64,000 bases of DNA. Origin: an uncultured Bacteroidota bacterium (lineage in GTDB: Bacteria > Bacteroidota > Bacteroidia > Bacteroidales > GCA-2748055). Below the pieces are notes generated by a model that was not told the DNA's origin, searched no databases, and saw nothing but the letters and a program-made list of their open reading frames with translations. Shown here piece after piece: positions 4,733-48,348 of the stretch (position 1 is the first letter of the stretch; each line of letters starts with the position of its first letter). Location: NCBI GenBank assembly GCA_963713725.1, contig CAVQMZ010000024.1:5664-69663 (forward strand), given 5' to 3'. Position numbers and translations under genes: made by a program.

Positions 4733-7139
4733 CTAGTCCCGTCTCATTGAAATAGCCGGATTAACATTGGCTGTTTTCAAAACCTGGGATATTACGGTTA
4801 TGATGGTAATCAGGAGTACAATAAAAGTGGGAATAATAAAAAACCACCAACCGATACTCACTCTGTAGGCAAAATTTTCAAGCCATCCGGACATGATGTA
4901 GTAAGCCATTCCCAGTCCAATGGGAACAGCGATCACCACCTGGATCACAAAATAACGCAGGAGAAGAAGCACCGCATTGCTTACGGAAGAACCCAGCACC
5001 TTCCTGAGTCCAATTTCCCGGGTTCGCTGAATGGTGGCATAGGAGGAGAGACCAAACAATCCAAGGCCCGCAATGAATATGGCCAGGAAAGCAAAGAGGC
5101 CAAATACCCTTCCAAATCGCATCTCGTTCCTGTATTGCTCGTTATAATAGTCCTCTAAAAAGAAATACTCAAACGGATTCTGGGGAAAGAACTGCAACCA
5201 CTCTTCCTCCACAAAAGCAAGAACCTCCTTGCTTTTCAAAGGATTTACCTTTATGGAATAGTATGAGTTTGCATCCTTGAAGTACCTGAATACCAATGGC
5301 TCCTGATTTTCCTTCAATCCTTCCTGGTGGTAATTTTTCAATACCCCGACAATGTTGAAAGTATCCCCCCAGAAATAAATGGGCACATTTATTGCCGAAG
5401 CATTGTCCTCAAAACCCATGAGGGTAACTGCCGCCTCGTTTAGCAGTACCGTCTCACTGTTCTGGCCAAAATCCTCAGAAAAATTCCGTCCCTCAAGGAT
5501 GCTCAGTCCATAAAAATCCACAAAATCAAAATCGAAGCCAATGATCCGGTACTGATTTCCATCTTCTTCAGCGTCAGAAAGCCTGCGAATCCCGCCAGCG
5601 TTCCAGCCGGGTTGTCGTCCGGGAACAACAATGGAAGCTGTAACCTTCTCCACATCCGGATTTCGAATCAGCTCCTGCTTAAAGGCGCTGAATTTTTCAG
5701 AATAAGTGGAATCATTTACTGCAGGTCCTCTGACTACCAAGACATTATCAATGTCAACCCCAAGGTCGGAGTTTCTCATATAGGAAATTTGGGTATAAAC
5801 AGTGAGGGTGCCGGCCACCAGCAGAAGGGAGGTGGTAAACTGGAAAATCACCAGGATCCGGCGCATGCCCAGTCCGCCCACTTTTAATTCAGAAACCCCT
5901 TTAAATACAGTGGTGGGTTTAAATGAGGATAGGAAAAGGGCAGGGTAGAGGCCGGAAAAAAATGCGCCCACAATAAAACCCAGCAAAACCAGGCCCCAGA
6001 AACCTGAATTGGATCCAAAGGAGTAGTCAAGATTTTGTCCAGTCAGATCGATTGAAGGCCTGCCCAAGTGTAATAACCAGGATAAATGCAAGCCCTATGG
6101 CAATGATGTTCATAAGAAAGGACTCCATTAAAAATTGCCCCAGTAACTGCCTTCTCTGGGCACCATTCACTTTGCGCATTCCAACCTCACGGGCTCGCTC
6201 CAGCGAACGGGCACTGGAGAGATTAATATAATTGATCCAGGCAATGATCACCAGGAAAATGGATATGGCAATCAGGGCGTATACTGAACGGGCATTCCCA
6301 TTGGGTTCAGCTTCAAACATAAAATCAGAATTCAGGTGTATGCTTTTAAGAGGCTGAAGATTATAAATAGCCCCGGCACCAAAGTTTGCCAGATCTTCCC
6401 CTGTAAGCTCCTCCACAAGGGCTGGTATTTTTGTCTCAAAGTCCTTATAATCAGTATGTGGGTTAAGCTGGATATAGTTGAAAAATCCGTCCCATTGCCA
6501 GGCTGTATTAACGTTCTCTCCACGAAACCTCACCAGTGTAGCCCACGAAACCACTATATCGGGTTTCAGGTGGGAATTCTCCGGTGCATCCTCGAAAACC
6601 CCGATAATCCTGAATTCCACATCTCCATTAAAGCTCATGCTTTCACCGATGGGGCTTTCTTCTCCGAAATACTTCCTGGCGGTACTTCTGGACAGCAACA
6701 TTTCCATGGGATTCAAGAGCACAGTGTTTGGATCCCCTTCAAGAATGGCAAAGGAAAAAATTTCGAAAAAGGAAGTGTCGGCCAGGTAAATCTCCTCTTC
6801 CCTGAATTTTTTCTCCCCAACACTGAAAACACCATTCCATTTCTGAAAACGTGTAAAATTTTCCACCTCTTCGAAATTCTCATACAGGGCCTGTCCCACC
6901 GCTGAACAACCGGCCGCCCATTGGGTAGTCAGCTCTCCTTTGTTGTAGCGGTCCTGCTGAATCCGGTAGATAAGATCCTGATTTTCATGGAAATTATCAT
7001 AGCTAAGTTCAAATCGAACATACTGTATAATCAAAATAAAAGCAGCCATACCTATGGCTAAACCAACAATATTTATGAGGGAGGAAATTCGGTTCTTAAA
7101 AAGATTTCGGAAAGTAATCAGCAGGTAGTTGCGGAACAT
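4733..7139 (-). CDS. FtsX/MacB-like ABC transporter permease (two FtsX domains), split by one frameshift near 6057-6068
   Basis: ORFs 6027..7139 (MacB_PCD-like domain plus the first FtsX domain) and 4733..6091 (second half, ending in a 4-TM FtsX domain) overlap and tile one roughly 800-aa protein. The break sits at CTTGGGCAGGCC on the coding strand. Confidence 0.75.
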
Positions 7140-27854: not shown

Positions 27855-27896
27855 GCCGGCTCCATTCTATTGGTGATAGGATATTTATTCTGTTAG

Positions 27897-27914
27897 TTTC
27901 GAGAGGGGAGAGGC
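27897..27914 (+). repeat. solo 18-nt seed (TTTCGAGAGGGGAGAGGC) of the conserved repeat module found at 31.5-36.3 kb
   Basis: It is identical to the corresponding 18 nt of repeat copies C (33738-33755) and E (36171-36188). It is intergenic, between the phosphorylase-like gene and the 3' end of the TonB receptor. Confidence 0.7.
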
Positions 27915-27930
27915 AGGCATAATACTTTCT

Positions 27931-30347
27931 TTAAAACTCCTCGCCACCGCCTCCATCTGATCCGCTGCCCCGATTGCTCTGCTTGAAATTGTTCAGGCGG
28001 TAGCTGAGCTGTAAGTGAAATAATGGGTGCCCGGGTGGATCTGCTGTAATAATTGTAGAAGTCAACATCCTGTGTAATGGATACACGCGTCCACGGTGGA
28101 AAAAACATCGCGAACCTGCAGAACCAGGGATAAGCTCTTATCCAGGAAATCGCTGCGTACAGCAGCATTAAATGCGTAGTAACCTTTATCCTCACCCTGT
28201 GTGGTAACCGTGGCACTGTTGTAATTGCCATCAAACTGGATCCGGATCCTTTTGGCTATGTTAAATGTATTGTTCACCCTCGTCCCCCAGTTAAATGATT
28301 GATATAGAAGATCCGTTGATCTCACTATCGATACGATAGTCATACATGTCGCCCATCAGATTGAGCTCCCACCATGGAAACAGTGATATATTGTACAGGG
28401 CTTCCAGGCCAAGGGAGTAATCGGTACCCACATTGGTATAGGTTTGTAAAAGAATCCCTTCCTGCATAAACTTCCCGGGTTCGTTCCACTTTGTTGTGTT
28501 TGATCCTGTAATAGGCTTCCAGTGACAACTGTGACTTCTCACGTGAATGAATGAAGCCCATTTCCATGGCATCGATATACTCTGGTTGCAGGGCAGGATT
28601 TCCCTGTCGAACATTGTACATATCGGTCCAGGTAATAAAAGGCTCAAGGTAATATCCCCTGGGCCTGTCGATGCGGCGTGAATAGGAGGCCATGAGCTGG
28701 TTTTCCCCGGGTAACTGGTAGGAGAGGTGGAGGGTAGGGAAGAAGTCATATCGTTCCAGGGTATAGTCTTCAACACTCTCATCTGCAGTAATAGCTCTGT
28801 TGGTATATTCGCCCCTCAGGCCTGCCTGGTATCCCAGATTTCCATTTTCTCCTTTGAAGATTCCATACAGGGCATAGATATTCCTGGTATATATAGTGTT
28901 ATTGCTCTTGTCTGGCTGAAGAATATAATCCTGCACATCCGGGTCGAAGATATACAAAGCAGTTGCATCCTCACTTGTTCCGCTTCTCAGCTGAAAACCA
29001 GCTTCCAGGCCATGTTATCACCAATGGGTTTGGAATAATCCAGCTTTGACTTCCAACTGATTTGAGGGTCCTTTTTCGGTAGTTCTTGTACCCTGGTTCA
29101 CCGATCCATTCTCATCCTGAAGCAAGTTCTCGAGAGAACTCGTCTCCCTTTCGAAGCCTTTGGTTGAACTGCAGCATCAGCTCATGACCCTTTTGCTAGA
29201 AATGAATGTTGAAAACTACCTGTCAGGTTGTAATAAAGTGCACCCCGACCGGATTCGTTCAGGCTGATTTCGCGTGTTTCGAAATCGAAAGGATCACGGT
29301 AGGTCAGGTAGTCGAGTTGGGAAGTTGCTCAGGCCCTTATACTCCCCGGCCCGGATTCCAATGGAAAAATTGTTCCTGGGTGAAATATCCCAATCCAATC
29401 CCATCCGCAATCCACCTCCACCATGCAGGCTTTCAGAATCACCCGCCGCTTCAATGATGGTAGTGGTATCTCCCTGGGTGGTCCGCCGTTCACTGGAGGT
29501 CTCTCCGGGATAAGGACTGTTCCTGTAATCCCCTCCAAAATAGATATTTGCATTACCTTTTCTGTAATTCAGCAGGAAATCTCCCCCGTATTCCCCGAAA
29601 GTATTGGTTTTGAGGTTGAACAGACCCTGGAGGCCCATGCATGCGGTTTTTCTTTGTAATGATATTGATGATCCCACCCGTACCATCTGGCTGGTACCTG
29701 GAAGAGGGATTGGTGATGATCTCGATATTTTCAATGGTGGAGGCCGGGGTTTGCCGCAATACATCACTGGGATCCAGCACCGTGGGTTTTCCATCAATGA
29801 GGACCGTAAAGCCTGTACTTCCGCGAAGTGATACATTGCCTTCCACATCCACACGGATGGATGGTACATTTTCAAGTACTTCCACAGCACTCAGTGAGGC
29901 AGCAGTCATCTGCTCACCCACAGAAATAACTTTTTTATCGATTTGAAACTCAACTGCGTTTCGTTCATTGGTAATCACCACTTCCTCAAGAATCTGGGAA
30001 CTGGTCTCCAGGAAAATCGTTCCGATATCCAGGCGTCGATTGCTGCGATCGATCACCAGATCACTGTAGTGCAATTCATCATAACCCATGAAACTCACCT
30101 GTATATAATAGTTGCCCTCGGCAATCTTGGTGGCATTGAAATTGCCATTCCGGATCTGTGATGGTGCCGGTTACAAGTGTGCTGTCATCCGCATTGAATA
30201 ATGCGATGGTTGCGAATTCAATGGGTTGTTTCGGATTCCTGGTCATAAACCATACCCCGTACCTGTCCTCCTTCATCAATATCATCAGCATGTAGTATTC
30301 ACCGCAATAAACAGGCTGAACATCATTCCAATAAATATCTTTTTCAT
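27931..30347 (-). pseudogene. TonB-dependent receptor (CarboxypepD_reg + plug + barrel) broken by many frameshifts
   Basis: At least eight overlapping minus-strand ORF fragments tile one receptor. Manual translation gives the N-terminus MKKIFIGMMFSLFIAVNTT from ATG 30347, a plug (NVSLRGSTGFTVLIDGKPT, IENIEIITNPSSRY) and the C-terminus LSYRLNNFKQSNRGSGSDGGGGEEF with its stop at 27931-27933. Confidence 0.8.
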
Positions 30348-30668
30348 AGCTATCATTCCTCATAATATCATCTTCACCATTTCTCCTGGTCCTGATTGAT
30401 AGTTATAATTAGACTATTAACACCTGCTAAAGTTTAATTGTTCTAAATAAAAATAAAATTGTTTTAACTAAATCACTGCAATTCTGACTTTTATGGGCGA
30501 CTGCTATTAATATTTAGATTTTAATAGGGGAGAAGTAATGCATATTTCAGATAATTAAAGAATATCCTCAATTTGTGAATACTGTTTGGTTTAGCCCTAA
30601 CTTATATCTATATTGCTACTAATTAAGTCGATAGAGGATATTATTTAACTTCGAAATACCGCATTATT

Positions 30669-31196
30669 ATGAGCAAGACCGCATTATTTTACAGCCCGGA
30701 AGGCGGAAACGTAGATAGCGTAGCCAAAAAGCTTGGAGAACTGATTGGAAATGAAAAAGTTGATATAATTCCTGTAAAAAAAGTTAAACAGGGAGATTTA
30801 GATAAATACAATAAGATCATCCTTATAGGTTCTACTGTAGGAGCAGATCATTGGGATAACGAAATTATTGTAGATGAGTGGGCTGAGTTTTTTATGAAGA
30901 TTAAGGATAATAGTTTTGAGAATAAAAAGGTAGCTATTGTCGGACTTGGAAACAGTGTTTTATATCCTGAACACTTCGCGGACGGAATGGCTGTTCTTTA
31001 TGAAAGAATCAAAGAGCAAAATGGTGAGATATTGGGTAAGATTGAAGCGAAAGGTTATGATTTCACAGATTCGGAAGCTTTGGACGATAAAGGATTTTTC
31101 TGCGGATTAGCGATTGACGAAGACAATGAATATGATCTGACTGAAGACAGATTAAAAAACTGGATATCGATCTTAAAACCTGATTTTGAGTTTTAG
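30669..31196 (+). CDS. fldA: long-chain flavodoxin
   Basis: 175-aa ORF with an FMN-binding N-terminus (ALFYSPEGGNVDSVAKKL), VAIVGLGNSVLYPEHFADGM and a long-chain insert. The gene is markedly A+T-rich. Confidence 0.85.
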   Translation: MSKTALFYSPEGGNVDSVAKKLGELIGNEKVDIIPVKKVKQGDLDKYNKIILIGSTVGADHWDNEIIVDEWAEFFMKIKDNSFENKKVAIVGLGNSVLYPEHFADGMAVLYERIKEQNGEILGKIEAKGYDFTDSEALDDKGFFCGLAIDEDNEYDLTEDRLKNWISILKPDFEF

Positions 31197-31199
31197 GGC

Positions 31200-31480
31200 A
31201 GTTTGAGGATCTTCCTTGTAGTAATAAGATCCTTTGACCTGATGGTCTGGCTGTTCCAATCCACATAAAACCCTGGCTGTCCTTCAAAATAATTGTGGAG
31301 CATCTGACGACAATCCATCCTCTGTGGAGATATGTTCACTATGGTACCACTTGGGCCATGATTCAACTTGGGGAAAGGTTTTCGCGAGGGTCAGATTCAG
31401 ATTTTCCAGCCCTAAAGTATCTTTTACTCCATCAGAAGGGTGGTATCGAAATGTTCAATTTGCTGGTAGCGTGTTAGTCC
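31200..31480 (-). pseudogene. remnant of the N-terminal propeller region of a Y_Y_Y/hybrid sensor regulator gene (truncated, frameshifted)
   Basis: Minus-strand frames read ...HISTEDGLSSD... and KDSQGFMWIGT..., which are typical two-component-regulator-propeller repeats. The reading direction runs into the flavodoxin 3' end with no room for the rest of the gene. Confidence 0.55.
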
Positions 31481-31509
31481 GGTGTTAAAACTAACTTTGG
31501 AAGTTCTAA

Positions 31510-31757
31510 AAAAGCATGTGTCCAAATTGCTTTGGCCAACAGGTTAGGTATAAAAGTTACCCTATTGCCTCAATATTGTCAATGGTGGGTCGTCTCCTGG
31601 ATTTGCTGGACCCTTCTGCTGATATTTCAAGAGGGGAGAGGCTTTGCTTTTCCTGATGAGTGGAGGATACACTCTTTTTGCGTTGCAAAGCGATGAAAAA
31701 AGGGTGTTTCTAATATCACGCTGATATATAATCAATACACATAAACCTTAAGATCTA
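31510..31757 (+). repeat. repeat copy A: degenerate 3' half-site, conserved multi-hairpin module (31526-31707) and a 50-nt extension shared with copy B
   Basis: Hand alignment to copies B-E finds ATTGCTTTGG...TTTCAAGAGGGGAGAGGCTTTGCTTTTCC...GGATACACTCTTTTTGCG...AAAAGGGTGT, followed by TTCTAATATCACGCTGATA...CCTTAAGATCTA. Confidence 0.75.
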
Positions 31758-31825
31758 GTCTAAAAGGTTCTTATCAGCGGTACTGTTACCATATTGGTAA
31801 CTTTTTTTATATTTGAGGAAATTTT

Positions 31826-32119
31826 ATGCGAATTATTGCAAAAAGAATCATAAGGGAATTCTGGGAGAAGTATCCTGATGCCGAAGAAGCATTGCGAACC
31901 TGGTACCGTGAATCATCCAGGGGAAAATGGCATGATCCGAATCATTTGAAAACTCATTTCGGTCATGCCAGAATAATAGGTGCTAACAGAGTGATATTTA
32001 ACATCTGTGGCAACAAATACCGGCTTATAACCGAGATTAACTACACGAGGGGGTGGGTTTTCATTCGTTTTATAGGAACCCATTCTGCATATAATAAGAT
32101 TGACCCAAAGAAAATATAA
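31826..32119 (+). CDS. higB: type II toxin HigB-family mRNA interferase
   Basis: 97-aa ORF MRIIAKRIIREFWEKYPDAEEALRTWY...NRVIFNICGNKYRLITEINYTRGWVFIRFIGTHSAYNKID, a strong family-typical sequence. Confidence 0.9.
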   Translation: MRIIAKRIIREFWEKYPDAEEALRTWYRESSRGKWHDPNHLKTHFGHARIIGANRVIFNICGNKYRLITEINYTRGWVFIRFIGTHSAYNKIDPKKI

Positions 32120-32124
32120 TTGAT

Positions 32125-32484
32125 ATGTACCAGGTAAAACCAATTAAATCGGAAGAGGATTATGACAATGCGCTTAAGCGTATGAAAGAGATATTTCACG
32201 CAGAAGAAGATACAGAGGAAGGGGACGAGGCCGAAATACTCATGTTGATTATCGAAGATTATGAGGAGAAGTATCATCCCATTGGTAATCCTGATCCCAT
32301 AGAAGCCATTAAGTTCATGATGGAGCAAAAGGATCTGAAACAAAAAGATCTCGCAGAAATCCTTGGGTATAGGAGCCGTGTCTCAGAAATCCTATCCGGG
32401 AAAAGGAAGCTGAATCTGGAAATGATTCGCAGACTTCATGAAAAATTGAATATCTCCTATGAAACACTTATGGGCAGGTATTAA
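32125..32484 (+). CDS. higA: HigA-family antitoxin (XRE-type HTH)
   Basis: 119-aa ORF starting 5 nt after higB. It contains IKSEEDYDNALKRMKEIF...PDPIEAIKFMMEQKDLKQKDLAEILGYRSRVSEILSGKRKLNLEMIRRLHEKL. Confidence 0.9.
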   Translation: MYQVKPIKSEEDYDNALKRMKEIFHAEEDTEEGDEAEILMLIIEDYEEKYHPIGNPDPIEAIKFMMEQKDLKQKDLAEILGYRSRVSEILSGKRKLNLEMIRRLHEKLNISYETLMGRY

Positions 32485-32507
32485 TAGCATACTGAACGGG
32501 AATATGA

Positions 32508-32872
32508 CGCAATTCCTGTCAACATAGGACAAACAGCCAGTGGCTGTTTGGGCCAGGCTGTGGGTGGCTACCGATATAGGGAAAGGAAAAGCCCTCTATC
32601 TGATTTTATGTGAATCAGCGCAGCTGAAAGGGATTTGCTTCTTTTGCACTAGAATGTACTTGCATTAAGTTAATATAGCTTTGGGAACCAAAGTGATAAA
32701 TGCAATTTTCTGTAGGTCTTGTACCATTTGTTGAATTTTGAAGAGGGGAGAGGCTTAGATTTTTCTGGATGGATGGTGGATACACTCTTTTTGCGATGCG
32801 GAGAAACGTGAAAAGGGTGTTTACTGATACGCTGATAAACAATCCTTTATCACATCAACCTTTAAGATTCTA
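32508..32872 (+). repeat. repeat copy B: branched hairpin (32521-32612), type-1 3' half-site, multi-hairpin module, shared extension
   Basis: It starts 24 nt after the higA stop. It contains AACATAGG, two internal hairpins, TTTTATGTG, then GCACTAGAATGTACTTGCATTAAGTT and the module ending GGGTGT at 32820. The extension runs to about 32872. Confidence 0.8.
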
Positions 32873-32912
32873 TGGCGAACTTATAAAGCTATCAACAATT
32901 ATCCATATCACT

Positions 32913-33525
32913 ATGAGTGAGGAAAACAATCTAACATTATCAGATGAAGTCGTAATGGACAAAATCCATTTGTTTAGAGGTGTTAAAGTAATGCTAGACA
33001 GAGATTTGGCCGAACTCTACGGTGTGACTACAGGTAATCTGAATAAAGCTGTAAGTAGAAACATAGCTCGGTTTCCTGATGACTTTATGTTTCAACTTAC
33101 CAAAAAGGAGTTCGATAACTTGATATTCCAAATTGGAATATCAAGTTGGGGTGGTCTTCGTAAACTTCCACGAGCCTTTTCCGAGCAGGGAGTTGCCATG
33201 CTTTCAGGAATTCTACACAGCGAAAGGGCCATCAAGGTTAACATCCATATTATGCGAGTATTTTCTCGGATGCGTGAAATGCTTGAAGCCCACAAAGAGA
33301 TCCTATATAAAACTTGAATCCCTAGAAAGAAAAGACTTTGAACAGGATGATAAAATCATGATAATCCTGGAATACATAAAGCGACTTGAAAAAACCCAGT
33401 TTAATGGAGGTCGCAATTTACGTCCTCCAATAATCCGCATCTTACAGGGAAAAGCATTTGCGGGATGGCTTGAGATGCAATTTAATATAATACTCTTGAG
33501 AAGGTCGCAAATCCCTTCAACATAG
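32913..33525 (+). CDS. ORF6N (KilA-N-like) DNA-binding domain protein; frameshift at the A4 run 33309-33312; 3' end uncertain
   Basis: From ATG 32913 the sequence reads MSEENN...IHLFRGVKVMLDRDLAELYGVTTGNLNKAVSRNIARFPDDFMFQLTKKEF...WGGLRKLPRAFSEQGVAMLSGILHSERAIKVNIHIMRVF. The C-terminal coiled part (KLESLERKDFEQDDKI...) continues in the frame of ORF 33133..33525. Confidence 0.75.
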
Positions 33526-33818
33526 GACAAACAGCCAGTGGCTGTTTGGGCCAGGATGTGGGCGGGTACCGATATAGGGGCAGGAAATGCCCTATATCTG
33601 ATTTTATGTTAATCAGCGCAGCTGAACGGGATTTGCTTCTTTTGCACTAGAATGTACTTGCATTATGTTAAGATTGCTTTGGTAACCAATGCTATACATC
33701 CGACTTTTCTGGTAGAATCCCAAATCAAATATTTAATTTCGAGAGGGGAGAGGCTTTGGCTTTTCCGGATGATAGATGGATACACTCTTTTTGCGAAACG
33801 AAGCAGCGGAAAGGGTGT
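33506..33818 (+). repeat. repeat copy C: outer stem, branched hairpin (33519-33610), type-1 3' half-site, multi-hairpin module
   Basis: The sequence runs CGCAAATCCCTTCAACATAGG...TTTTATGTTAATCAGCGCAGCTGAACGGGATTTGC, then GCACTAGAATGTACTTGCATTATGTT, then the module ending GGGTGT at 33818. Confidence 0.85.
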
Positions 33819-33840
33819 AAAGTCGGTAAACTGTTCAAGA

Positions 33841-34159
33841 TTACACTATTGGAATCCCTTCTTTTTTTACGATCTGAAGCAGGGGTGAAACTTCATCATT
33901 GTCGAATCGGGAAAGACCAACAGCAAAAGGTTCAATTCGGCGGTCAACTTTGCGGGTTAATTTCCAGATCAGTCCATAAGCAAGATCATCAGAACTGTCA
34001 TCAAACCTCCTGGAAACCAGCATTACATCAATATCACTTCCTTCAGTTCCTCATTCCGGCTGCACTTCCAAAAAGAAAGGCCTTCTCGATCTGTAAACCA
34101 GAATCGTTCAGAATCCTAACATATTCTGAGACTTTGCTTATAGTTTCCTTTCGATCCAT
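33841..34159 (-). CDS. nucleotidyltransferase (MNT-like) partner of the HEPN protein; one frameshift near 34040-34062
   Basis: Manual translation gives MDRKETISKVSEYVRILNDSGLQIEKAFLFGSAAG and then a frame break. It continues as ..EGSDIDVMLVSRRFDD... in ORF 33841..34023. This is the GSxxxG...DxD NTase signature. Confidence 0.7.
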
Positions 34160-34518
34160 ATCAACATCTCCTTTGTTTTATTCAGATACTCAACGACTTT
34201 ATCTTTTGTAGGTATTACAGGATTGTAATCGGGATACCGACCTTCCAACTGATATTTCATCAGAATCCCAAGGAAATCCTCATAAATCTCTTCAAACTCA
34301 ATATTGGAAAGATCCAGTAGATATATCAGGTTGTGTGTTTTGGGAGGAATTTGTCCTGTATCTTTTACCACAAGTGCCTTAAGGGCTTTCTCAATTGTTA
34401 AATGGCAAAAGAAAAGACCATGAATACTCCTTGATTCCCTGATTAACAGCTCAGCAGTATCCAGATCGGATTTTGCAGAAGTGATCCAATATTCTATTTG
34501 CTTTTCAATATTAAGCAC
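34138..34518 (-). CDS. HEPN domain protein
   Basis: 126-aa ORF; EYWITSAKSDLDTAELL...HGLFFCHLTIEKALKALVV...PKTHNLIYLL is typical of the HEPN (PF05168-like) family. It overlaps the downstream NTase start by 22 nt. Confidence 0.75.
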   Translation of the reverse strand: MLNIEKQIEYWITSAKSDLDTAELLIRESRSIHGLFFCHLTIEKALKALVVKDTGQIPPKTHNLIYLLDLSNIEFEEIYEDFLGILMKYQLEGRYPDYNPVIPTKDKVVEYLNKTKEMLIWIERKL

Positions 34519-34579
34519 ACCAGTAGTTTTACTAAAAGTACATATTTTTCCAGAAAAGCCTTTGCACAGAAGACAACAA

Positions 34580-34640
34580 AAGCGGAGCGAAGGCTGGAGA
34601 AGGCTTTTGAGCGCAGGCTGTGGGGCAATTTAACATAATA
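34580..34640 (+). repeat. repeat half-site G: conserved 40-nt leader plus ATTTAACATAA, with no 3' partner
   Basis: AGGCTTTTGAGCGCAGGCTGTGGGGCAATTTAACATAAT aligns with the 5' sides of copies E (35981-36019) and F (36980-37019). The hairpin is replaced by an ORF fragment directly after AACATAA. Confidence 0.75.
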
Positions 34641-34986
34641 CTTTTTCAATAATGATATTTATGTAGGTACTGATGTGGGGGTATATTCTAAATCTATAAA
34701 TGACAATGCCTGGCAAGAGGAAACGGATTTTCCGAAAGTCCTAGTTTCAGATTTATTATTAAATAAATCTAGTGGGGATTTGGTGGCTGGCACATACGGG
34801 AGGGGTGTTTGGAGGAAAAACCTAGGTGCTGGGGATTGTGTTGATTTTACGGATTTAACCATCGATTCTTATCTTGACTGGAATGGTAGTCCTGTATGTT
34901 TTAATATAACTGTGGCTTCTGGTGGAACGTTAAATATTACAGGGAGTGTAGATATGGCTAATAGAGCGCAAATCCTTTCAACATAA
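34639..34986 (+). pseudogene. internal fragment of a beta-propeller/BNR-like secreted protein gene, bounded on both sides by repeat elements
   Basis: The open frame begins at 34639, immediately after the repeat half-site: YFFNNDIYVGTDVGVYSKSINDNAWQEE...LVAGTYGRGVWRKNL... There is no start context or signal peptide. The frame ends inside the left arm of repeat D. Confidence 0.6.
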
Positions 34987-35243
34987 AATCGGTATCGATA
35001 TAGGGTCGCTACACGCCCTATATTGATTTTATGTTAATCAGCGGAGCTGAACGGGATTTGCTTCTTTTGCACTAGAATGTACTTGCATTATGTTGATATT
35101 GCTTTGGTAACCAAAGCGATACATACAATTTTCAGTAGGCCTTGTACCATGTATTGAAATTTCAAGAGGGGAGAGGCATTTGCTTTTCCGGATAGTTGAT
35201 GGATACACTCTTTTTGCGGAACAGAGTGGAGTGAAAAGGGTGT
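34967..35243 (+). repeat. repeat copy D: outer stem (34968-34975 / 35054-35061), clean 56-nt hairpin (34980-35035), type-1 3' half-site, multi-hairpin module (35098-35243)
   Basis: AACATAAAATC pairs with GATTTTATGTT in 11-bp arms, with an inner ATATAGGG/CCCTATAT stem. The module hairpins are listed in the findings. Confidence 0.85.
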
Positions 35244-35258
35244 ACAAATAGGAACTAC

Positions 35259-35591
35259 TTATTTTAGTAATTCTGCAACCTCTTTTCGTAATAAGGGCAG
35301 AGATCGTTTGATAATCAACCACAAGATATCTGGGGTTATGCTGTCATAGCCATGAATTATCCTGTTTCTTGTATCAACTATCTTTCGTGAATCAGAGATA
35401 GCAATATCAGGAGAAACTTTTAATATTCTATTCAAAGCCTCACCAATGATCTCTATGTTCCTTTCAATTGCCTTTTGTGTTTTAAGGTCCTTCTCAAACT
35501 CGAAGTAATCAATATCCGCTGGCAAGAAATCGTAAATCTGCTTAATAGATATCCGAATATCTTCAAGCCAAGTATTGATCTCATGCTTCAT
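35259..35591 (-). CDS. hepT: DUF86/HepT-type HEPN toxin
   Basis: 110-aa ORF with the Rx4H motif in DTRNRIIHGY and IERNIEIIGEA, typical of DUF86. It overlaps the upstream NTase gene by 11 nt. Confidence 0.85.
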   Translation of the reverse strand: MKHEINTWLEDIRISIKQIYDFLPADIDYFEFEKDLKTQKAIERNIEIIGEALNRILKVSPDIAISDSRKIVDTRNRIIHGYDSITPDILWLIIKRSLPLLRKEVAELLK

Positions 35592-35880
35592 ACAAAAGCT
35601 TTTTCGACTTATTGATGCTAATGGTAAGATATTTATTTCTGAGCGCCTTTTGTTCGAGTAGGTCTATCTGACGATTCAGCAAATCCTCTAGTGCAAATTT
35701 CAACCCAAAATAATTCTCAGCATATTCTATTGGGTCCAAGGTATTAAAATCCACCACTAAATCTACATCGCTATCCTTTGTGAACTCAGTATTTAGAACG
35801 GAACCAAAAGCAAATAGCTGTCTGACCTTGTGATTTTCACAAAGCTTATTTATTTCACCTATGTAAGAATCCAGATACAT
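35581..35880 (-). CDS. mntA: MntA-type nucleotidyltransferase antitoxin
   Basis: 99-aa ORF containing LFAFGSVLNTEFTKDSDVDLVVDF (GSx10-DxD). Confidence 0.85.
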   Translation of the reverse strand: MYLDSYIGEINKLCENHKVRQLFAFGSVLNTEFTKDSDVDLVVDFNTLDPIEYAENYFGLKFALEDLLNRQIDLLEQKALRNKYLTISINKSKKLLYEA

Positions 35881-35961
35881 AACTTATGTACAAAAATAGA
35901 AAATCCGACATAACTAGTGTAACCTAAACAAGAAAAGACTGTGCGCAGGATATGTTGAGAC

Positions 35962-36253
35962 TAAAGCGAGGTAGCGGGAAGGCTTTTGAGCCCAGGCTGA
36001 GGGGCTATTCAACATAATGTCAAATTCTAGTGTCAGAGCAGCAACCAGGCAACATAGCAAAGATAGCCGCAGCTGCACTAGAATGTACTTGCATTATGTT
36101 GATATAGCTTTGAGATCTATAACATATTACATGCCTAATCTGAATAATTTCCTGAAACAGTCAATGCAATTTCGAGAGGGGAGAGGCTTTTGCTTTTCTG
36201 GATGATTGGTTAGTACACTCTTTTTGCGGAATGTAATGAAGCGAAAAGGGTGT
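35962..36253 (+). repeat. repeat copy E: 40-nt leader, type-1 hairpin (36007-36104), multi-hairpin module ending 36253
   Basis: The hairpin is ATTCAACATAATG TCAA ATTCTAGTG ... CACTAGAAT GTACTTG CATTATGTTGATA, with two perfect 9-bp stems. The module then follows. Confidence 0.85.
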
Positions 36254-36281
36254 CAAAGGCATTGACCTCTGACTCGAGCTT

Positions 36282-36629
36282 CTATAGTGAATCTATAATT
36301 GACTGGATTTGCAATCTGTTTTCCGGAAGATGATTGATACAAACATCCCATATGATTTCATAGTCAATCCCAAAATACTCGTGGCTTACCTTATTTCTAA
36401 GCAGATACATTTCAGCCCAAGGAATGTCTGGATTATTTTCTTTAATATGACTGGGCAGATTTTTTGAAGCTTCTCCGATAATTTCAAAATTCCGGATTAC
36501 TGCATCTACTGTCTTATAATCCTTTTTGAACTGGTCAAAAGTGTATCCTTCAAGATATTCAGCGATTCTACTCATTGCAACAAGAAGATCTTGTAAATAC
36601 ATCGTATAATTGCGCTCCTCCTTTTTCAC
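36282..36629 (-). CDS. hepT: DUF86/HepT-type HEPN toxin (second, divergent copy)
   Basis: 115-aa ORF with the Rx4H motif in LLRNKVSHEY and AVIRNFEIIGEA. Confidence 0.85.
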   Translation of the reverse strand: MKKEERNYTMYLQDLLVAMSRIAEYLEGYTFDQFKKDYKTVDAVIRNFEIIGEASKNLPSHIKENNPDIPWAEMYLLRNKVSHEYFGIDYEIIWDVCINHLPENRLQIQSIIDSL

Positions 36630-36920
36630 TTATGCGTAATTAACTTGTGCGAGAATACTATCCCTAATTTGCTCTTTTAATGCATTTTTGGTAACCAAAT
36701 CTACTTTTCTGCCAAATATACTTTCCAGATAGATTTGAAGTGTGAAATAATTCCAACCTATGGGTTTGTATAATTCTACCAGCATATCAATATCACTTTC
36801 ATCCGAAGCTTCATTATTTGCAAAAGATCCAAAAATGCCAATCTCTTTAACAGCATATTCCTCAGAAAGGATCGGTTTCAACTCTCGAAGTTTATCGAGT
36901 ATATCATTCTTGTTAAGCAT
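36630..36920 (-). CDS. mntA: MntA-type nucleotidyltransferase antitoxin (second copy)
   Basis: I moved the start to the internal ATG at 36920 (MLNKNDILDKLRELKP...IGIFGSFANNEASDESDIDMLVEL). The track ORF's 32-aa N-terminal extension reads through repeat copy F. Confidence 0.8.
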   Translation of the reverse strand: MLNKNDILDKLRELKPILSEEYAVKEIGIFGSFANNEASDESDIDMLVELYKPIGWNYFTLQIYLESIFGRKVDLVTKNALKEQIRDSILAQVNYA

Positions 36921-36965
36921 ATTCAAATATATTGAATTTTTGCGGATAGATTCAGCATAATCTAC

Positions 36966-37100
36966 TAGAGAGGCGGAAAAGCTTTTGCGGGCTGGCCTAG
37001 TGGGGCTATTTAACATAATGGCTGATTCTAGTGTCAGCGCATCAACCAGGCAACAGTGAAAGAAAGTCGCAACTGAACTAGAATTAATATTATGTTAAAT
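36966..37100 (+). repeat. repeat copy F: leader plus type-1 hairpin (37008-37100) only; last unit of the array
   Basis: ATTTAACATAAT (37008-37019) and ATTATGTTAAAT (37089-37100) are perfect 12-nt inverted arms, with an inner ATTCTAGT/ACTAGAAT stem. No conserved module follows. Confidence 0.85.
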
Positions 37101-37167
37101 AGAAAATATATAAAGAAAGGGAGATAATTAGCTTACCTCCCCTCTCATTATCGTTTTGAAATGAAAC

Positions 37168-38508
37168 TTATAAGTTCTCCTTCAGTGCTTTAACCCTTTC
37201 ATACTGATCCATCATCTGCTCCTTGTAATATATTCTCTGAAGGATATCAAGGGTTTCATATTTCACTGTAGGATTATCAACATTAAGCTCGTAAGCCTTC
37301 TCAAGAGCTGGGATTGCCTCTGAATATTTTTCCTTACCCAAGTTTCAAAAGCTCTCCCTGGTGGGCTCATGCTCTTCCACATTTGATCTTTCATAAAAGT
37401 CAGCTCCCTGCAGGTAATAAATGTATCCCATATCATACCAGATATAATAAATGGTTGGATCCAGCTCTCCAGCCTTCTGGTAAGCTCAATTGCCTTATCA
37501 ATGAATTCAACTTCTTCCTTATTAATAAGCAGCCTTCCTTTCCAATAATAAGTCTCCGCGATGTCGGGATTATTTGCAATGGCTTGATCCATAAACTCAA
37601 TGCCTTCATCAAATTGGCCTAATAGTATGTAAGTATCTGCAACATTGGCAATTATATTAACTGAGTCAGGGTATTTTGCGAATCCTTCTTTTAATGCTTC
37701 CAGTACCTGCAAGGGTATCTCCAATGGCAAAATAATCCATTTTAATCTGCAGGTAGGTATTGGGACCACCATAATTAACCTCAGCCAGTTGCTCATAATA
37801 ATTGATTGCTTTCTTGTAAAGCTCATCATCATCAGTTTTACTGGCAATTTCCCTGGAAATAATACCGGAATACTGAACCATAATGGTATCAAATTCACCT
37901 GCAAATACGGGCTGGTTATTAACTTCAAGGACATTCTCAAAACAATTTAGAGCCGCCTTATAATCATCTTTATAATAGCTATTTACACCGTCTCTCTTCA
38001 ACTGGTCCTTAATGGTATCGAGATTGGCTTTTGCTTTTTCTTCCAGCTTCCCTGCTTCATCCAGCTCAAGTGCTTTTATATAGGCTTCCATGGATACTCT
38101 CAGCGGATCTTCATTAATTGGATTTATCTTCTCATAATACTGAAGATTCCCATTGACGAAGGTATATTTGATTTGCTCATAAATATAAGTTTCATACTTA
38201 GCGCCATCCTTTGTCTTCAGTCTCAATACTCAGAGGCTCTTTATATAAGAGTATAACAGCAGTTGTTGGCGATGCCTTCCTGGATTTCTTCAAGACCAAT
38301 CATAAAAACATCCTGGTAAATCTCTCCCCTTTTGAACCAGGTAGTAGCTTTCTGACTTTTCTTTTGCGTCTTGTATTTCCAGATCGCTTTTGTCCGCTTT
38401 CTTTTTTACTGCATTATAGTTTAGTGGAATAAATGTAGAGCCATCCTGCGCATTCATCGCAGGGATTGCTAACAGAGCCACTAGCAGTGTAACAAATAAC
38501 TTTTTCAT
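37168..38508 (-). pseudogene. TPR-repeat lipoprotein/secreted protein, at least three frameshifts
   Basis: The N-terminus MKKLFVTLLVALLAIPAMNAQ comes from an internal ATG of ORF 38290..38553. The middle is covered by ORFs 37666..38226 and 37263..37940. Manual translation of the C-terminus gives ...GKEKYSEAIPALEKAYELNVDNPTVKYETLDILQRIYYKEQMMDQYERVKALKENL, with the stop at 37168-37170. Confidence 0.7.
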
Positions 38509-48276: not shown

Positions 48277-48348
48277 GCGGGAGTAGCTCAGTGGTAGAGC
48301 ATCAGCTTCCCAAGCTGAGGGTCGGGAGTTCGAACCTCCTTTCCCGCT
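48277..48348 (+). tRNA. tRNA-Gly (anticodon CCC)
   Basis: A 72-nt cloverleaf folded by hand: acceptor GCGGGAG/TTCCCGC, D arm GCTC-AGTGGTA-GAGC, anticodon stem TCAGC/GCTGA with loop TTCCCAA, and a T arm with loop TTCGAAC. CCA is not encoded. Confidence 0.9.

Follow-up and report, generated by a model that had tools for sequence, protein, structure and literature searches.

The central part of the window, i.e. the whole 64-kb stretch of DNA that was analyzed, contains a row of ~1-kb units whose cargo consists solely of toxin-antitoxin or ORF6N genes (HigBA, ORF6N, HEPN/MNT, and HepT/MNT in the window). On the left, the array is bordered by a conserved chromosomal flank with a plus-strand flavodoxin gene (30669-31196; Pfam Flavodoxin_1, E 2.7e-14), which also borders arrays at 12 other loci. 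Between this gene and the first unit lies a degenerate stretch (31197-31525) with broken minus-strand ORF pieces and without a Xer-type arm, whose homology to other loci is limited to one 58-nt match; its interpretation as a decayed integrase was rejected because there was no Pfam match. The cargo of cassette A (31826-32484, plus strand) comprises higB (31826-32119; Pfam HigB_toxin, 1e-28) and an HTH antitoxin gene (32125-32484; HTH_3, 1e-9), with a -7 box TATATTTG at 31808-31815. Cassette B carries the plus-strand gene of an ORF6N-domain protein (32769-33317; Pfam ORF6N, 3.6e-31). ORF6N is the commonest cargo type of the family, and ORFs of 178-184 aa start 82-99 nt past the module described below in many loci; the Pfam scan for ORF6N covered the window protein alone, and the others, including that of contig L068, were assigned by length, position, and sequence likeness. 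The cargo of cassettes C, D, and E lies on the minus strand. Cassette C (33841-34518) contains a HEPN gene (34138-34518; Pfam HEPN, 7e-20) and its broken partner with two stop codons (33841-34137). Cassette D (35259-35880) contains genes for a HepT toxin (35259-35591; HepT-like, 1.4e-18) and an MNT nucleotidyltransferase (35581-35880; NTP_transf_2, 1e-12) with a -7 box TATTTTTG at 35891-35898, and cassette E (36282-37016) likewise contains genes for HepT (36282-36629; HepT-like, 8e-30) and MNT (36630-37016; NTP_transf_2, 3.7e-14), the true start of the latter probably being near 36915, after a TATATTTG box at 36924-36931.

Each of these units carries a copy of a ~150-170-nt module, and all five copies in the window lie on the plus strand. 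The initial annotation had placed them at 31526-31707 (A), 32675-32820 (B), 33673-33818 (C), 35098-35243 (D, the feature under study), and 36105-36253 (E), and these positions were confirmed. In a pattern search of the window, the two-box pattern GGGGAGAGGC-N15-40-CACTCTTTTTGC matched exactly the five module sites on the plus strand, with zero matches expected by chance from 100 shuffles. Both nhmmer and a covariance model yielded five plus-strand matches in the window, the latter with E-values from 3e-14 for copy A with its divergent 5′ part to 3e-27 (A, 31565-31713, E 3.4e-14; B, 32660-32826, E 5.5e-24; C, 33658-33824, E 1.4e-24; D, 35083-35249, 149.9 bits, E 2.6e-27; E, 36089-36259, E 9.1e-23). 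Copy A is conserved in its 3′ two-thirds (nhmmer 31610-31715, corresponding to model positions 81-186), and its 5′ part is diverged and has no dif-like arm on the left. On the minus strand, the covariance model gave only a weak match, which came from the palindromic hairpin H4 of copies A and B (E ~1e-3). Copy D consists of hairpin H1 (35101-35117), the variable H2 (35119-35154), box 1 GGGGAGAGGC (35168-35177) with H3 extending to 35189, and box 2 ACACTCTTTTTGCG (35205-35218) within H4 (35205-35243). While the core positions of the module held, its left edge was revised, as the conserved unit begins ~30 nt further left, at a Xer-type right arm CACTAGAATGTACTTGCATTATGTT. The modules had also been described as parts of cassettes, and they are indeed located at the cassette edge. 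A protein-coding reading was rejected because indels do not come in threes and candidate reading frames differ among subgroups.

At the right end of the array, a 28-bp site with the sequence CTGAACTAGAA-TTAATA-TTATGTTAAAT (37073-37100, plus strand; 11-6-11) is seen directly, and no module follows it. Its XerD arm TTATGTTAAAT is also that of the dif-like sites described below and is identical to the XerD arm of Vibrio cholerae dif1 (PMC3089051). Nine other genomes have the same 28-bp layout next to the same flank (L002, L004, L014, L015, L025, L069, L104, L111, and L131), and the GC skew turns from plus to minus at 32-37 kb, where the right end of the array lies. We regard the site as the probable chromosomal dif; its assignment to the terminus is drawn from 64 kb, over which local GC skew also tracks gene orientation. 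The 6-nt center together with a perfect XerD arm is found in the right-end site only, and the internal sites differ from it.

The architecture of these internal sites can likewise be read from the DNA. Each module follows an imperfect palindrome that is composed of two inverted dif-like Xer sites and forms a forked hairpin on the plus strand. The spacers at the internal junctions comprise 7 nt in the left arm and 9-10 nt in the right arm and are mutually mismatched. The junction before copy B (32504-32671, plus strand) shows a long nested palindrome TCAACATA...TATGTGAATC, then the right arm CACTAGAATGTACTTGCATTAAGTT, and includes the repeat families D1, D3, and D4; the junction before copy C (33506-33669, plus strand) also consists of a nested palindrome and a right arm, and 33506-33671 is 95% identical to L015 4622-4783. 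Upstream of copy D, an inverted dif-like site serving as left arm (34628-34655, minus strand) is truncated after the XerD arm, the minus strand reading ...TTATGTTAAAT. It is followed by the nested palindrome GCAAATCC...TCAACATAAAATC...GATTTTATGTTAATC...GGGATTTGC (34968-35061, plus strand; DNA fold -26.4 kcal/mol, z -6.2) and by a right arm (35067-35098, plus strand) with an XerC-type arm TTGCACTAGAA (35067-35077), the 10-nt spacer TGTACTTGCA, and a degenerate XerD-type arm TTATGTTGATA (35088-35098), which is the make-up of a canonical dif with a longer spacer. Junction E (36008-36105, plus strand) is a complete forked-hairpin site, with an inverted dif-like site as left arm (36008-36036) and a right arm composed of CTGCACTAGAA (36074-36084), TGTACTTGCA, and TTATGTTGATA (36095-36105); its DNA fold reaches -21.0 kcal/mol on the plus and -23.2 kcal/mol on the minus strand (z -4.6 and -5.4, respectively), with an unpaired spacer bubble. 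The last inverted dif-like site (37008-37035, minus strand; GACACTAGAA-TCAGCCA-TTATGTTAAAT on that strand) is the left arm of a junction F. The z-scores of the junction DNA folds range from -4.4 to -6.2, the unpaired bases number 95 in the right arm versus 35 in the left arm, and the arm pairing on the plus strand includes 34 G-T versus 8 A-C pairs.

A regular expression for the right arm gave 198 matches, of which ~150 are followed by a module. Nearly all remaining matches are left arms of the opposite strand or chance matches, and four are real arms without a module; in cassettes of L118, L119, L126, and L101, the module is mostly lost and the Xer-type arm is retained. Fisher's test links one position of the right arm to one beyond GTT (p 1e-5) and shows no linkage for the left arm. 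Linkage across GTT was also detected in a mutual-information scan of 84 copies, which helped to place the crossover and did not find strong Watson-Crick covariation. In L070, the left boundary of the array runs from the flavodoxin stop codon through a lone XerC-type arm and a spacer to the module, as is predicted by repeated XerC exchange at dif. The spacer start of the cassettes (TGT) and that of dif (TTA) have one matching position, which is poor for XerC strand exchange. No tyrosine recombinase was found in the 64-kb window, and tblastn with IntI1 found no integron integrase there; the same search of the other loci yielded Xer-like recombinases only, with 55-93 bits versus an IntI cut-off of 265.

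The hairpins proposed earlier for copy D are present in the sequence, and its RNA fold is more stable on the plus strand (-45.0 kcal/mol, z -4.3) than on the minus strand (-26.4 kcal/mol). The claim that the base pairing is specific for the plus strand was borne out directly by three wobble pairs of H4 (U-G or G-U), which are retained in 117-134 of 144 copies. Over the 144 distinct copies, 83.9% of cells are paired compared with 44-55% when the partners are slid, and 19 pairs change on both sides, a value reached in none of 500 shuffles. Hairpin H4 is well supported, including its conserved G-U pairs that are possible on the plus strand only. The proposed structure of four hairpins thus stands for H4, whereas H1 and H3 are weak as family-wide helices (76-77% paired, H3 mostly via G-U) and H2 is variable. 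H3 was rejected as a family-wide helix because it holds only in the subgroup of the window; at its position, other subgroups have a different hairpin with compensatory changes of its own, or none. A compensatory change in H2 between copies B and D is real but lacks family-wide support, H2 being a variable region. The alternation of G-U and G-C in H4 is also real, but its site is the loop-proximal end of the helix rather than the base; across the family, 117 copies have G-U and 16 have G-C at this pair. Across the family, the two boxes are separated by distances ranging from 16 to 42 nt, for which reason box 1 and box 2 were rejected as -35 and -10 elements. An alternative pairing of GGGGAGAG with CUCUUUUU, both invariant, is possible on paper and would exclude H4. 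A general role as intrinsic terminator was rejected as well because a T-run follows H4 in only 33-36 of 172 copies (~20%). As stated previously, the module matches no known RNA family: scanning the window against Rfam 15 at gathering scores returned a tRNA at 48277 as the single match, region 31000-37500 at E up to 10 gave only chance matches far under the gathering scores, and seven other loci with 15 modules gave no match at E up to 1.

The distribution of the family was observed directly, with 181 covariance-model matches at E < 1e-5 in 100 sources, which are Bacteroidales genome bins and metagenome contigs, several of them labelled sediment; plasmid and phage collections gave no match. The same cargo recurs in different surroundings, the break points being located at the Xer site and within the module, there in box 1, box 2, and the end of H4. 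Change points cluster at the Xer site, box 1, and box 2. As the break points within the module coincide with invariant stretches, they are accounted for by ordinary gene conversion among the repeats as well as by a site-specific nick, and a search for a nick site via the break points pinned down no single site. The converse comparison (same module, different cargo) yielded a single pair. Contig L068 (1055 nt) has identical 100-nt ends, implying a circular or tandem unit of 955 nt; this single case could be a circle, with a tandem duplication as the alternative. Helper genes (relaxase, Rep, or filamentous-phage genes) were found beside none of the arrays.

The initial annotation had further suggested a promoter at the 5′ edge of the module and a transcript antisense to the toxin mRNA ends. 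The promoter sequence TAGCTTTG is present in copies B and E, but the idea is weak, as this sequence overlaps the flank of the XerD-like arm and occurs in only about half of the family copies and in two of the five in the window. Bacteroidetes promoters have the consensus TTTG at -33 and TAnnTTTG at -7 with a spacing of 19-21 nt. Reading the window sequence revealed no -33 TTTG partner at the right distance from TAGCTTTG, and the window contains no excess of TAnnTTTG (46 observed versus 48.6 expected). TAnnTTTG boxes of their own are located just upstream of the genes in the HigBA cassette and the two MNT/HepT cassettes; ORF6N cassettes have no recognizable -7 box of their own. The antisense idea gained no specific support because the module is kept in either cargo direction, the cargo being co-directional with it in 25 of 35 cassettes. 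What remains of the earlier interpretation are the repeats, their position at the cassette edge, the plus-strand pairing, and the lack of a known family, whereas the promoter idea is weak and the antisense idea has gained no specific support. Because the modules follow inverted dif-like sites folding on the plus strand and the array grows from dif, single-stranded DNA would be the expected intermediate and is a candidate at least equal to RNA.

The five repeats represent the common part, folded on one strand, of small gene cassettes that are stacked at dif, the dimer-resolution site of a Bacteroidales chromosome, and the array has the appearance of an integron-like system for gene capture that uses the Xer recombinases of the host in place of an integrase of its own. 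We infer that these host enzymes inserted five mobile cassettes of ~1 kb successively into the chromosomal dif, without an integrase. In plus-strand order, a cassette consists of a long spacer with a degenerate XerD-type arm, the ~150-nt module, and the cargo in either direction, followed by an inverted dif-like site, a loop, and an XerC-type arm. In a single-stranded circle of the plus strand, the two inverted sites may pair as a forked hairpin with a mismatched spacer, comparable to attP(+) of CTXphi. XerC would then swap one strand with dif, and replication would complete the integration. Thereby, every insertion would restore a working dif at the right end and leave dead sites behind.

In this model, the module would provide a signal by which a helper machine makes or moves the single-stranded form. 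We take it as a cis-acting signal because it is the sole other part common to all cassettes and folds on the same plus strand. It is tied to the Xer site and not to gene expression, as it follows the right arms, is missing after the true dif, and is indifferent to cargo direction and to the presence of a -7 box. That the module acts on plus-strand single-stranded DNA as an origin of transfer, replication, or packaging is the reading we prefer, with a confidence somewhat short of even. Candidates are an oriT-like transfer origin, a rolling-circle or complementary-strand origin, and a packaging signal, and recognition would be through H4 and the invariant boxes GGGGAGAGG and ACACTCTTTTTGCG. The motif TTTGCG...GGGTGT(G/T)G bears no more than a loose likeness to the nic region of the F plasmid. 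Besides the failure to find helper genes or a single nick site and the poor match of the spacer starts, the points against this reading include the conservation of wobble G-U pairs, which is more natural for RNA than for DNA, and the 25 co-directional cargos of 35, which are what a leader would predict. As a tentative overall picture, which is possible rather than probable, the locus may represent a Bacteroidales 'integron without an integrase', in which dif is the platform, ~1-kb cassettes are stacked by XerCD via CTXphi-like folded single-stranded sites, and the module is a shared oriT or rolling-circle origin, by which a conjugative element or filamentous phage would lift cassettes out as single-stranded circles and deliver them to a new cell.

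Instead of acting as DNA, the module could be a structured plus-strand RNA that is transcribed with or ahead of the cargo and serves as a 5′ leader common to the cassettes, as an element for processing or insulation, or as a small RNA, its H4 and conserved boxes being bound by a protein or ribonuclease. The strict retention of plus-strand-specific wobble pairs, the far better RNA fold on this strand, and the tolerance of variable-length hairpins at fixed points, as in many RNA motifs, would fit such an RNA, as would the 25 of 35 co-directional cargos, which start 70-120 nt downstream, the ORF6N cassettes lacking a recognizable -7 box, and the TAGCTTTG sequence at the 5′ edge of about half of the copies. 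However, the module is unchanged in cassettes with facing genes and their own promoters, no Rfam family matches, and a U-run follows H4 in so few copies that the module is not a standard terminator. A role in DNA mobility agrees better with its fixed position relative to the Xer-type arm and with the lack of a module after the true dif, and the adjoining recombination arms share the wobble bias of the plus strand, which cannot be an RNA constraint; we therefore consider an RNA function unlikely, though worth keeping in view. The module could also be accessory DNA of the Xer site, comparable to the ~180 bp adjoining the cores of cer and psi; it would bind architectural proteins of the host in duplex or folded form and thereby activate XerC without FtsK or set the direction of recombination. 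Known Xer plasmid sites indeed combine a 28-30-bp core with ~180 bp of accessory DNA (PMC5357621), the module is similar in size and located at a fixed distance from the core, it is co-inherited with the right arm, and it is absent from the true dif, which uses FtsK. Against this stand its location on the side of the XerD arm, in contrast to the accessory DNA of cer and psi on the XerC side, an inter-box spacing varying by up to ~10-20 nt, and strand-specific wobble pairs and compensatory changes, which point to a folded single strand instead of protein sites on a duplex, so that this explanation appears rather improbable.

An integron cassette cluster lacking its integrase (CALIN), with the palindromes as attC sites, the module as an attC extension, and IntI encoded elsewhere, would account for the ~1-kb unit size, the 80-100-nt imperfect palindromes, and a cargo that is typical of integrons, e.g. 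toxin-antitoxin genes; complex single-stranded attC sites were also suggested by Weinberg et al. for the DUF1874 motif (PMC5737381). Read on the minus strand, 25 of 30 left arms agree with the GTTRRRY core, which is explained by the XerD arm ending in GTTAAAT; of the right-hand cores, none of 30 agrees. Moreover, the arms contain the full 11-nt XerD arm, beyond GTTRRRY, the array terminates in a canonical dif at the skew switch, no IntI was found in the window or the loci, where the recombinases found score far under IntI cut-offs, and reference genomes of Bacteroidetes very rarely contain integrons (PMC9024848), making a CALIN very unlikely. When the palindromes are read as attC, cargo direction and array ends favor one orientation, and core consensus and unpaired bases favor the other; this conflict disappears once the arms are recognized as Xer sites in which crossover takes place at the XerC arm. 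Finally, the module might have no function and be a relic of an ancestral element, such as an intergenic region from a filamentous phage or satellite, that was copied along and homogenized by gene conversion. The modules are indeed mosaic with exchange points inside, and the cassettes of L118, L119, L126, and L101 have lost most of the module while keeping the Xer-type arm. In contrast, the two boxes and the H4 pairing, including wobbles and one U-U mismatch, are held over four subgroups, other parts of which differ by 30-40%, and compensatory changes are present; this requires selection and not copying alone, and we regard a relic as highly improbable.

If the cassette model is true, integron-type arrays can be built by the dimer-resolution enzymes of the host alone, which would be a second, convergent solution to cassette capture, and the cassettes would be a new class of minimal mobile element. 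To our knowledge, the elements exploiting Xer have hitherto been mainly phages, satellites, one large island, and plasmid modules of Acinetobacter. The arrays would also constitute a widespread route of gene exchange in environmental Bacteroidales, members of a phylum with integrons almost absent from reference genomes (PMC9024848). With two invariant boxes and one long hairpin, the module is a sharply defined and strongly conserved 150-nt target for the search for a partner protein or an RNA function. The cassette model may explain multistem motifs in consecutive intergenic regions such as DUF1874, and the 28-bp site and the module are usable as markers for dif and such arrays in metagenome bins.

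Several known systems resemble the array in part. With the cassettes and attC sites of sedentary integrons and CALIN it shares ~1-kb, promoter-poor units rich in toxin-antitoxin genes, one structure-specific single-stranded hairpin site per unit, and additions at one fixed end. Unlike these, it has no IntI, attI, or Pc, its sites have full Xer arms, dif is the docking site, and a module stands beside every site, which attC sites do not have. Acinetobacter pdif modules are small units that often carry toxin-antitoxin genes, are bounded by 28-bp Xer-type sites, and are presumed to be shuffled by the XerC/XerD of the host. These features are similar here, whereas pdif modules are plasmid-borne with single sites of alternating orientation and are not known to have a hairpin-forming inverted pair or a shared module. 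Being chromosomal and having paired inverted sites at one junction per unit, the array described here falls outside the pdif definition. The intergenic regions of Ff phages, rolling-circle single-strand origins, and oriT are clusters of hairpins on one strand of ~150-500 nt that are recognized in trans by Rep, RNA polymerase, relaxase, or packaging proteins. H4 and its invariant flanks are compatible with a hairpin beside a nick site for a cognate relaxase or Rep, and the exchange points within the module hint at such a site without being specific; the likeness concerns the hairpin layout, and no nick site was identified. The accessory DNA of cer and psi lies on the XerC side and is bound as duplex by PepA with ArgR or ArcA, whereas the module is located next to the XerD arm and its pairing is that of a single strand. 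In both cases, a short Xer core is accompanied by ~150-180 bp of conserved non-coding sequence required in cis (PMC5357621). For the DUF1874 motif, Weinberg et al. (2017) were undecided between an RNA and a complex, attC-like single-stranded DNA (PMC5737381). By its description, this motif is similar to the module in being multistem with highly conserved unpaired nucleotides and in occupying consecutive intergenic regions with ORFs between them and no integrase nearby.

The layout of the array mirrors that of CTXphi and related IMEX (integrative mobile elements exploiting Xer). In CTXphi, two inverted attP sites form a forked hairpin, the exchange is carried out by XerC only, and one live dif and two dead sites are left (PMC3089051, PMC4246890). 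The array resembles these elements in the inverted dif-like pair folding as a forked hairpin with a non-matching center, in its location at the chromosomal dif, in the tandem pile-up, in the lack of an element-encoded integrase, and in having one working dif at one end and dead sites inside, here with a lone XerC-type arm at the left end. It differs in its phylum, Bacteroidota, in the row of at least five units, and in the loop between the sites, which comprises 30-40 nt versus ~90. The cassettes are not phages but cargo-only units of ~1 kb without replication or morphogenesis genes; because their cargo includes no phage genes, we describe them as working like members of this group and do not file them within it. 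In addition, each cassette brings along a conserved folded module of ~150 nt, which sets it apart from the CTXphi-type elements.

The window contains five copies of a conserved folded module of about 150 nt, A (31526-31707), B (32675-32820), C (33673-33818), D (35098-35243) and E (36105-36253), as described in the initial annotation; repeat search, alignment, nhmmer and a covariance model agreed on their positions. A two-box search pattern derived from the alignment of the copies (GGGGAGAGGC, 15-40 nt, CACTCTTTTTGC) gave exactly five matches in the window, all on the plus strand and identical with these copies, with none expected by chance. Covariance-model E-values ranged from 3e-14 (copy A, of which the first third is divergent) to 3e-27 (copy D), and the minus strand scored only in copies A and B, at their palindromic last hairpin (E about 1e-3). 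The hairpins H1 to H4 listed for copy D are present, and the proposed preference of the RNA fold for the plus strand was reproduced (copy D, -45.0 kcal/mol versus -26.4 kcal/mol on the minus strand). Also, the module had not been recognized as a known RNA family, in line with the Rfam search, which returned zero matches in the window, whether at gathering scores or with the E-value limit relaxed to 10, and zero in seven further loci with a limit of 1.

For the pairing test, 144 distinct module copies were aligned to the covariance model, with partners slid by 1-3 columns and 500 shuffles as controls. Standard pairs occurred in 83.9% of the cells versus 44-55% with slid partners, and both sides had changed at 19 of the 33 pairs, which was reached by none of the 500 shuffles; an independent MAFFT alignment of 67 copies gave the same picture. 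Nearly all of this support came from H4, the two parts of which were 97.5% and 86.7% paired. Three wobble pairs of H4 are retained in 117-134 of the 144 copies each, and a U-U mismatch in 113. Read from the minus strand, these wobbles would become A-C mismatches; folding is therefore assigned to the plus strand. Conservation is higher in the 5′ strand of H4 than in its partner strand, which points to sequence-specific recognition in addition to pairing. H1 and H3 were weak (76-77% paired), H3 being confined to the subgroup of the window and paired chiefly via G-U, while H2 is a hairpin of variable form that is absent from one copy (L118; L-numbers denote other genome-bin or metagenome loci with module copies).

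When one genome per species was scanned, both boxes were found in 13 contigs, all from Bacteroidales or Bacteroidetes metagenome bins; four extra matches in other phyla were located inside genes and rejected as chance. The metagenome scan for both boxes yielded at least 120 contigs, the nhmmer harvest 233 copies from 125 loci, and the covariance model 181 copies (E < 1e-5) from 100 sources. At least four subgroups share the GGGGAGRGG box, the ACACTCTTTTTGCG box and the last hairpin, and differ in the intervening part. Copies harvested independently of the box pattern varied slightly in the boxes, and some box changes are compensated in H4, where the inner helix GUUG/CAAC became AAAA/UUUU in L126 and an A-U base pair became G-C in L012. 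In some copies small GC-rich hairpins (e.g. CCTCCTTCGCTAAAGCTACGGAGG) are inserted directly 5′ of box 1 or in the H4 loop; GC-rich inserts occur in L009 (about 6430-6465), L020, L036, L042 and L115, H4-loop inserts in L020, L039, L060 and L038, and they resemble a miniature repeat settling at tolerated spots.

While the module and its plus-strand pairing had been recognized correctly, the neighboring Xer sites and the terminal dif had been overlooked. An imperfect palindrome of 80-100 nt lies directly left of every module, and the units recur with a period of about 1 kb with genes between them. The arms of these junctions contain TTATGTTAAAT, which is the XerD-binding arm of dif in E. coli. 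In V. cholerae, dif reads AGTGCGTATTA TGTATG TTATGTTAAAT, with TTATGTTAAAT as its XerD-binding arm (PMC3089051). At 37073-37100 the array ends in the site CTGAACTAGAA-TTAATA-TTATGTTAAAT, which has the canonical 11-6-11-nt layout; this 28-bp site, with the center TTAATA or TTAATG, adjoins the corresponding downstream flank in nine further genomes, and the GC skew turns from positive to negative between 32 and 37 kb of the window, as predicted for a terminus. From these findings we conclude that 37073-37100 is probably the chromosomal dif, with the caution that skew also tracks gene direction and that the view is limited to 64 kb.

On the left, each internal junction carries a dif-like site in inverted orientation, with a perfect XerD arm and a center of 7 nt; on the right, a XerC-type arm, a 9-10-nt center and a degenerate XerD-type arm (TTATGTTGATA and variants) precede the module. 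In plus-strand DNA folds both parts pair as a hairpin with a bubble at the center. G-T pairs outnumber A-C pairs in the arms (34 versus 8 on the plus strand), so the site folds on the plus strand, like the module. All right arms share the orientation of dif. A right-arm position is tightly linked to one past the presumed site of crossover (Fisher p 1e-5), and the right arm and module start are co-inherited, the left arm being unlinked to both.

Further features of the junctions were observed. Among 84 copies, the right-arm position 5′ of TTATGTT and a position in ATAT(A/T)GC, 13 nt apart, showed G-T or A-A combinations (34 + 34) versus 8 others; they are unable to pair mutually, and co-inheritance is the sole reason offered. 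A second palindrome type, TCAACATAAAATC...GATTTTATGTTAATC nested in an outer stem GCAAATCC...GGGATTTGC, replaces the usual left arm at three window junctions (32504-32640, 33506-33640, 34968-35061) and occurs in L021 (about 6900-7030); two alternative right arms are available for pairing with its left arm. A site variant C(C/T)TA(G/T)AATGTGATATTATGTCTGCGC with a short spacer and no module behind was found in L004 (about 3959), L015 (about 3455), L035 (about 2690) and L091 (about 1170).

The cargo of the window, i.e. the genes between a module and the next junction, comprises a HigB/HigA pair, an ORF6N-domain protein, a HEPN gene with a broken partner and two HepT/MNT pairs; cargo is co-directional with the module in 25 of 35 cassettes. 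Across many related genomes the arrays lie between one shared flavodoxin gene and one shared TPR/gyrA flank, and the cargo differs. At a clean left end (L070), the flavodoxin stop codon is followed by a lone XerC-type arm fused to the cassette spacer; at the right end, left arm and loop are followed by a perfect dif. Between module and plus-strand cargo, a non-coding motif (GCTGATA, 12-16 nt, YCAT(C/T)AAT(A)), often next to a short hairpin such as AAGGTCACA...TGTGACCTT, was found at 31720-31765 and 32828-32875 of the window and in L015, L016, L041, L052, L095, L048, L100 and L085; it is common to ORF6N and HigBA cassettes and missing where cargo faces the module. A 334-nt piece behind a truncated left arm (34640-34973) is 95.5% identical to L015 2724-3059, and its ORF (34675-34986) has no Pfam match and resembles a fragment of a larger gene. 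The HEPN partner gene of cassette C (33841-34137, minus strand) has two in-frame stop codons, given which this toxin-antitoxin pair may be decaying. The TonB-dependent receptor gene at 27893-30363 (minus strand) is split into overlapping ORF pieces with Plug, OMP_b-brl_3 and TonB_dep_Rec in separate frames, probably due to pseudogenization or sequencing frameshifts.

The phage CTXphi carries two inverted dif-like sites that form a forked hairpin when its plus DNA is single-stranded; after a one-strand exchange between this DNA and dif by XerC, replication finishes integration, and the outcome is one new working dif plus two dead sites, with tandem build-up of elements (PMC3089051, PMC4246890). 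The cassettes would integrate in the same fashion, by a folded plus-strand site, XerC strand exchange at dif and completion by replication. This model would account for every oddity of the arrays: the missing integrase, both array ends, the co-inheritance of right arm and module, and the arm orientation. No integrase was found in the window, and other loci hold only generic Xer-like recombinases. These include a trio of tandem tyrosine-recombinase genes about 0.6 kb downstream of a module (L092 1645-4888), generic Xer-like and not IntI (integron integrase), and the same element on the opposite strand in L055.

The module stands behind about 150 of 198 regex right-arm matches; four genuine arms lack it, and the other matches without it are nearly all opposite-strand left arms or chance. 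True dif has no module behind it, and the module is retained for either cargo direction. A unit of about 1 kb encoding nothing for its own movement would need copying out of the chromosome, moving, and single-strand presentation to XerCD, and an attP-like hairpin would serve this last step only. Because the module is, apart from this hairpin, the sole part shared by all units and is structured on the strand required single-stranded, it suggests a mobility signal in cis. Tentatively, at slightly less than an even chance, we regard it as a signal that acts in cis and is used by a helper supplied in trans, i.e. a transfer origin, an origin of rolling-circle or complementary-strand replication, or a packaging signal; hairpin clusters in filamentous-phage intergenic regions and plasmid single-strand origins are model cases. 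Cargo of 87-98% identity recurs in unrelated contexts; the break point is at the Xer site for five pairs, within the module for most of the remaining pairs, and exactly at the H4 end for the best pair. Furthermore, the first and last 100 nt of a metagenome contig (L068, 1-1055) are identical, implying a circular or tandemly repeated unit of 955 nt that comprises the right arm, the module, a 182-aa gene (ORF6N-type, judged from length and sequence) and the left arm. These three results hint at movement and none is decisive; the break points inside the module coincide with its invariant stretches, where gene conversion would put them as well.

A plus-strand RNA is rather unlikely and still a serious rival, since strictly retained wobble pairs are more natural to RNA, cargo mostly runs with the module and ORF6N cassettes have no -7 box of their own. 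A promoter role of the module in the toxin-antitoxin cassettes was rejected, since a separate TAnnTTTG box precedes higB and the MNT genes by 11-12 nt. Its interpretation as a standard terminator or as coding sequence was also rejected. An accessory sequence of the Xer site like cer or psi agrees in size and fixed position, but the side of the core on which the module lies and the single-strand pairing disagree, making it improbable. Our first reading, an integron cassette array without integrase, was abandoned for contradictory site orientations: cargo direction and array ends favor one, core consensus and the side of unpaired bases the opposite. The linkage of the right-arm position across the presumed crossover conflicted with it as well. 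An integron type with IntI unseen is very unlikely, as full Xer arms and the terminal dif speak against it. Least probable is a relic without function, which leaves unexplained why boxes and wobble pairs are kept across subgroups otherwise 30-40% apart.

No description of Xer-dependent cassette arrays in Bacteroidetes or of the module motif was found in the literature. Bacteroidetes reference genomes contain almost no integrons (PMC9024848). The nearest published idea for the module, likened by description only, is a multistem element reported by Weinberg et al. as the DUF1874 motif; it recurs in successive intergenic regions that lack a neighboring integrase, and the authors considered that it could be a complex single-stranded site (PMC5737381). 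The cassettes resemble CTXphi in their working mode but are not classed as phages of this type because they carry no replication or coat genes. Instead, we class the arrays as Xer-exploiting mobile elements that take the form of cassettes and carry an additional conserved module.
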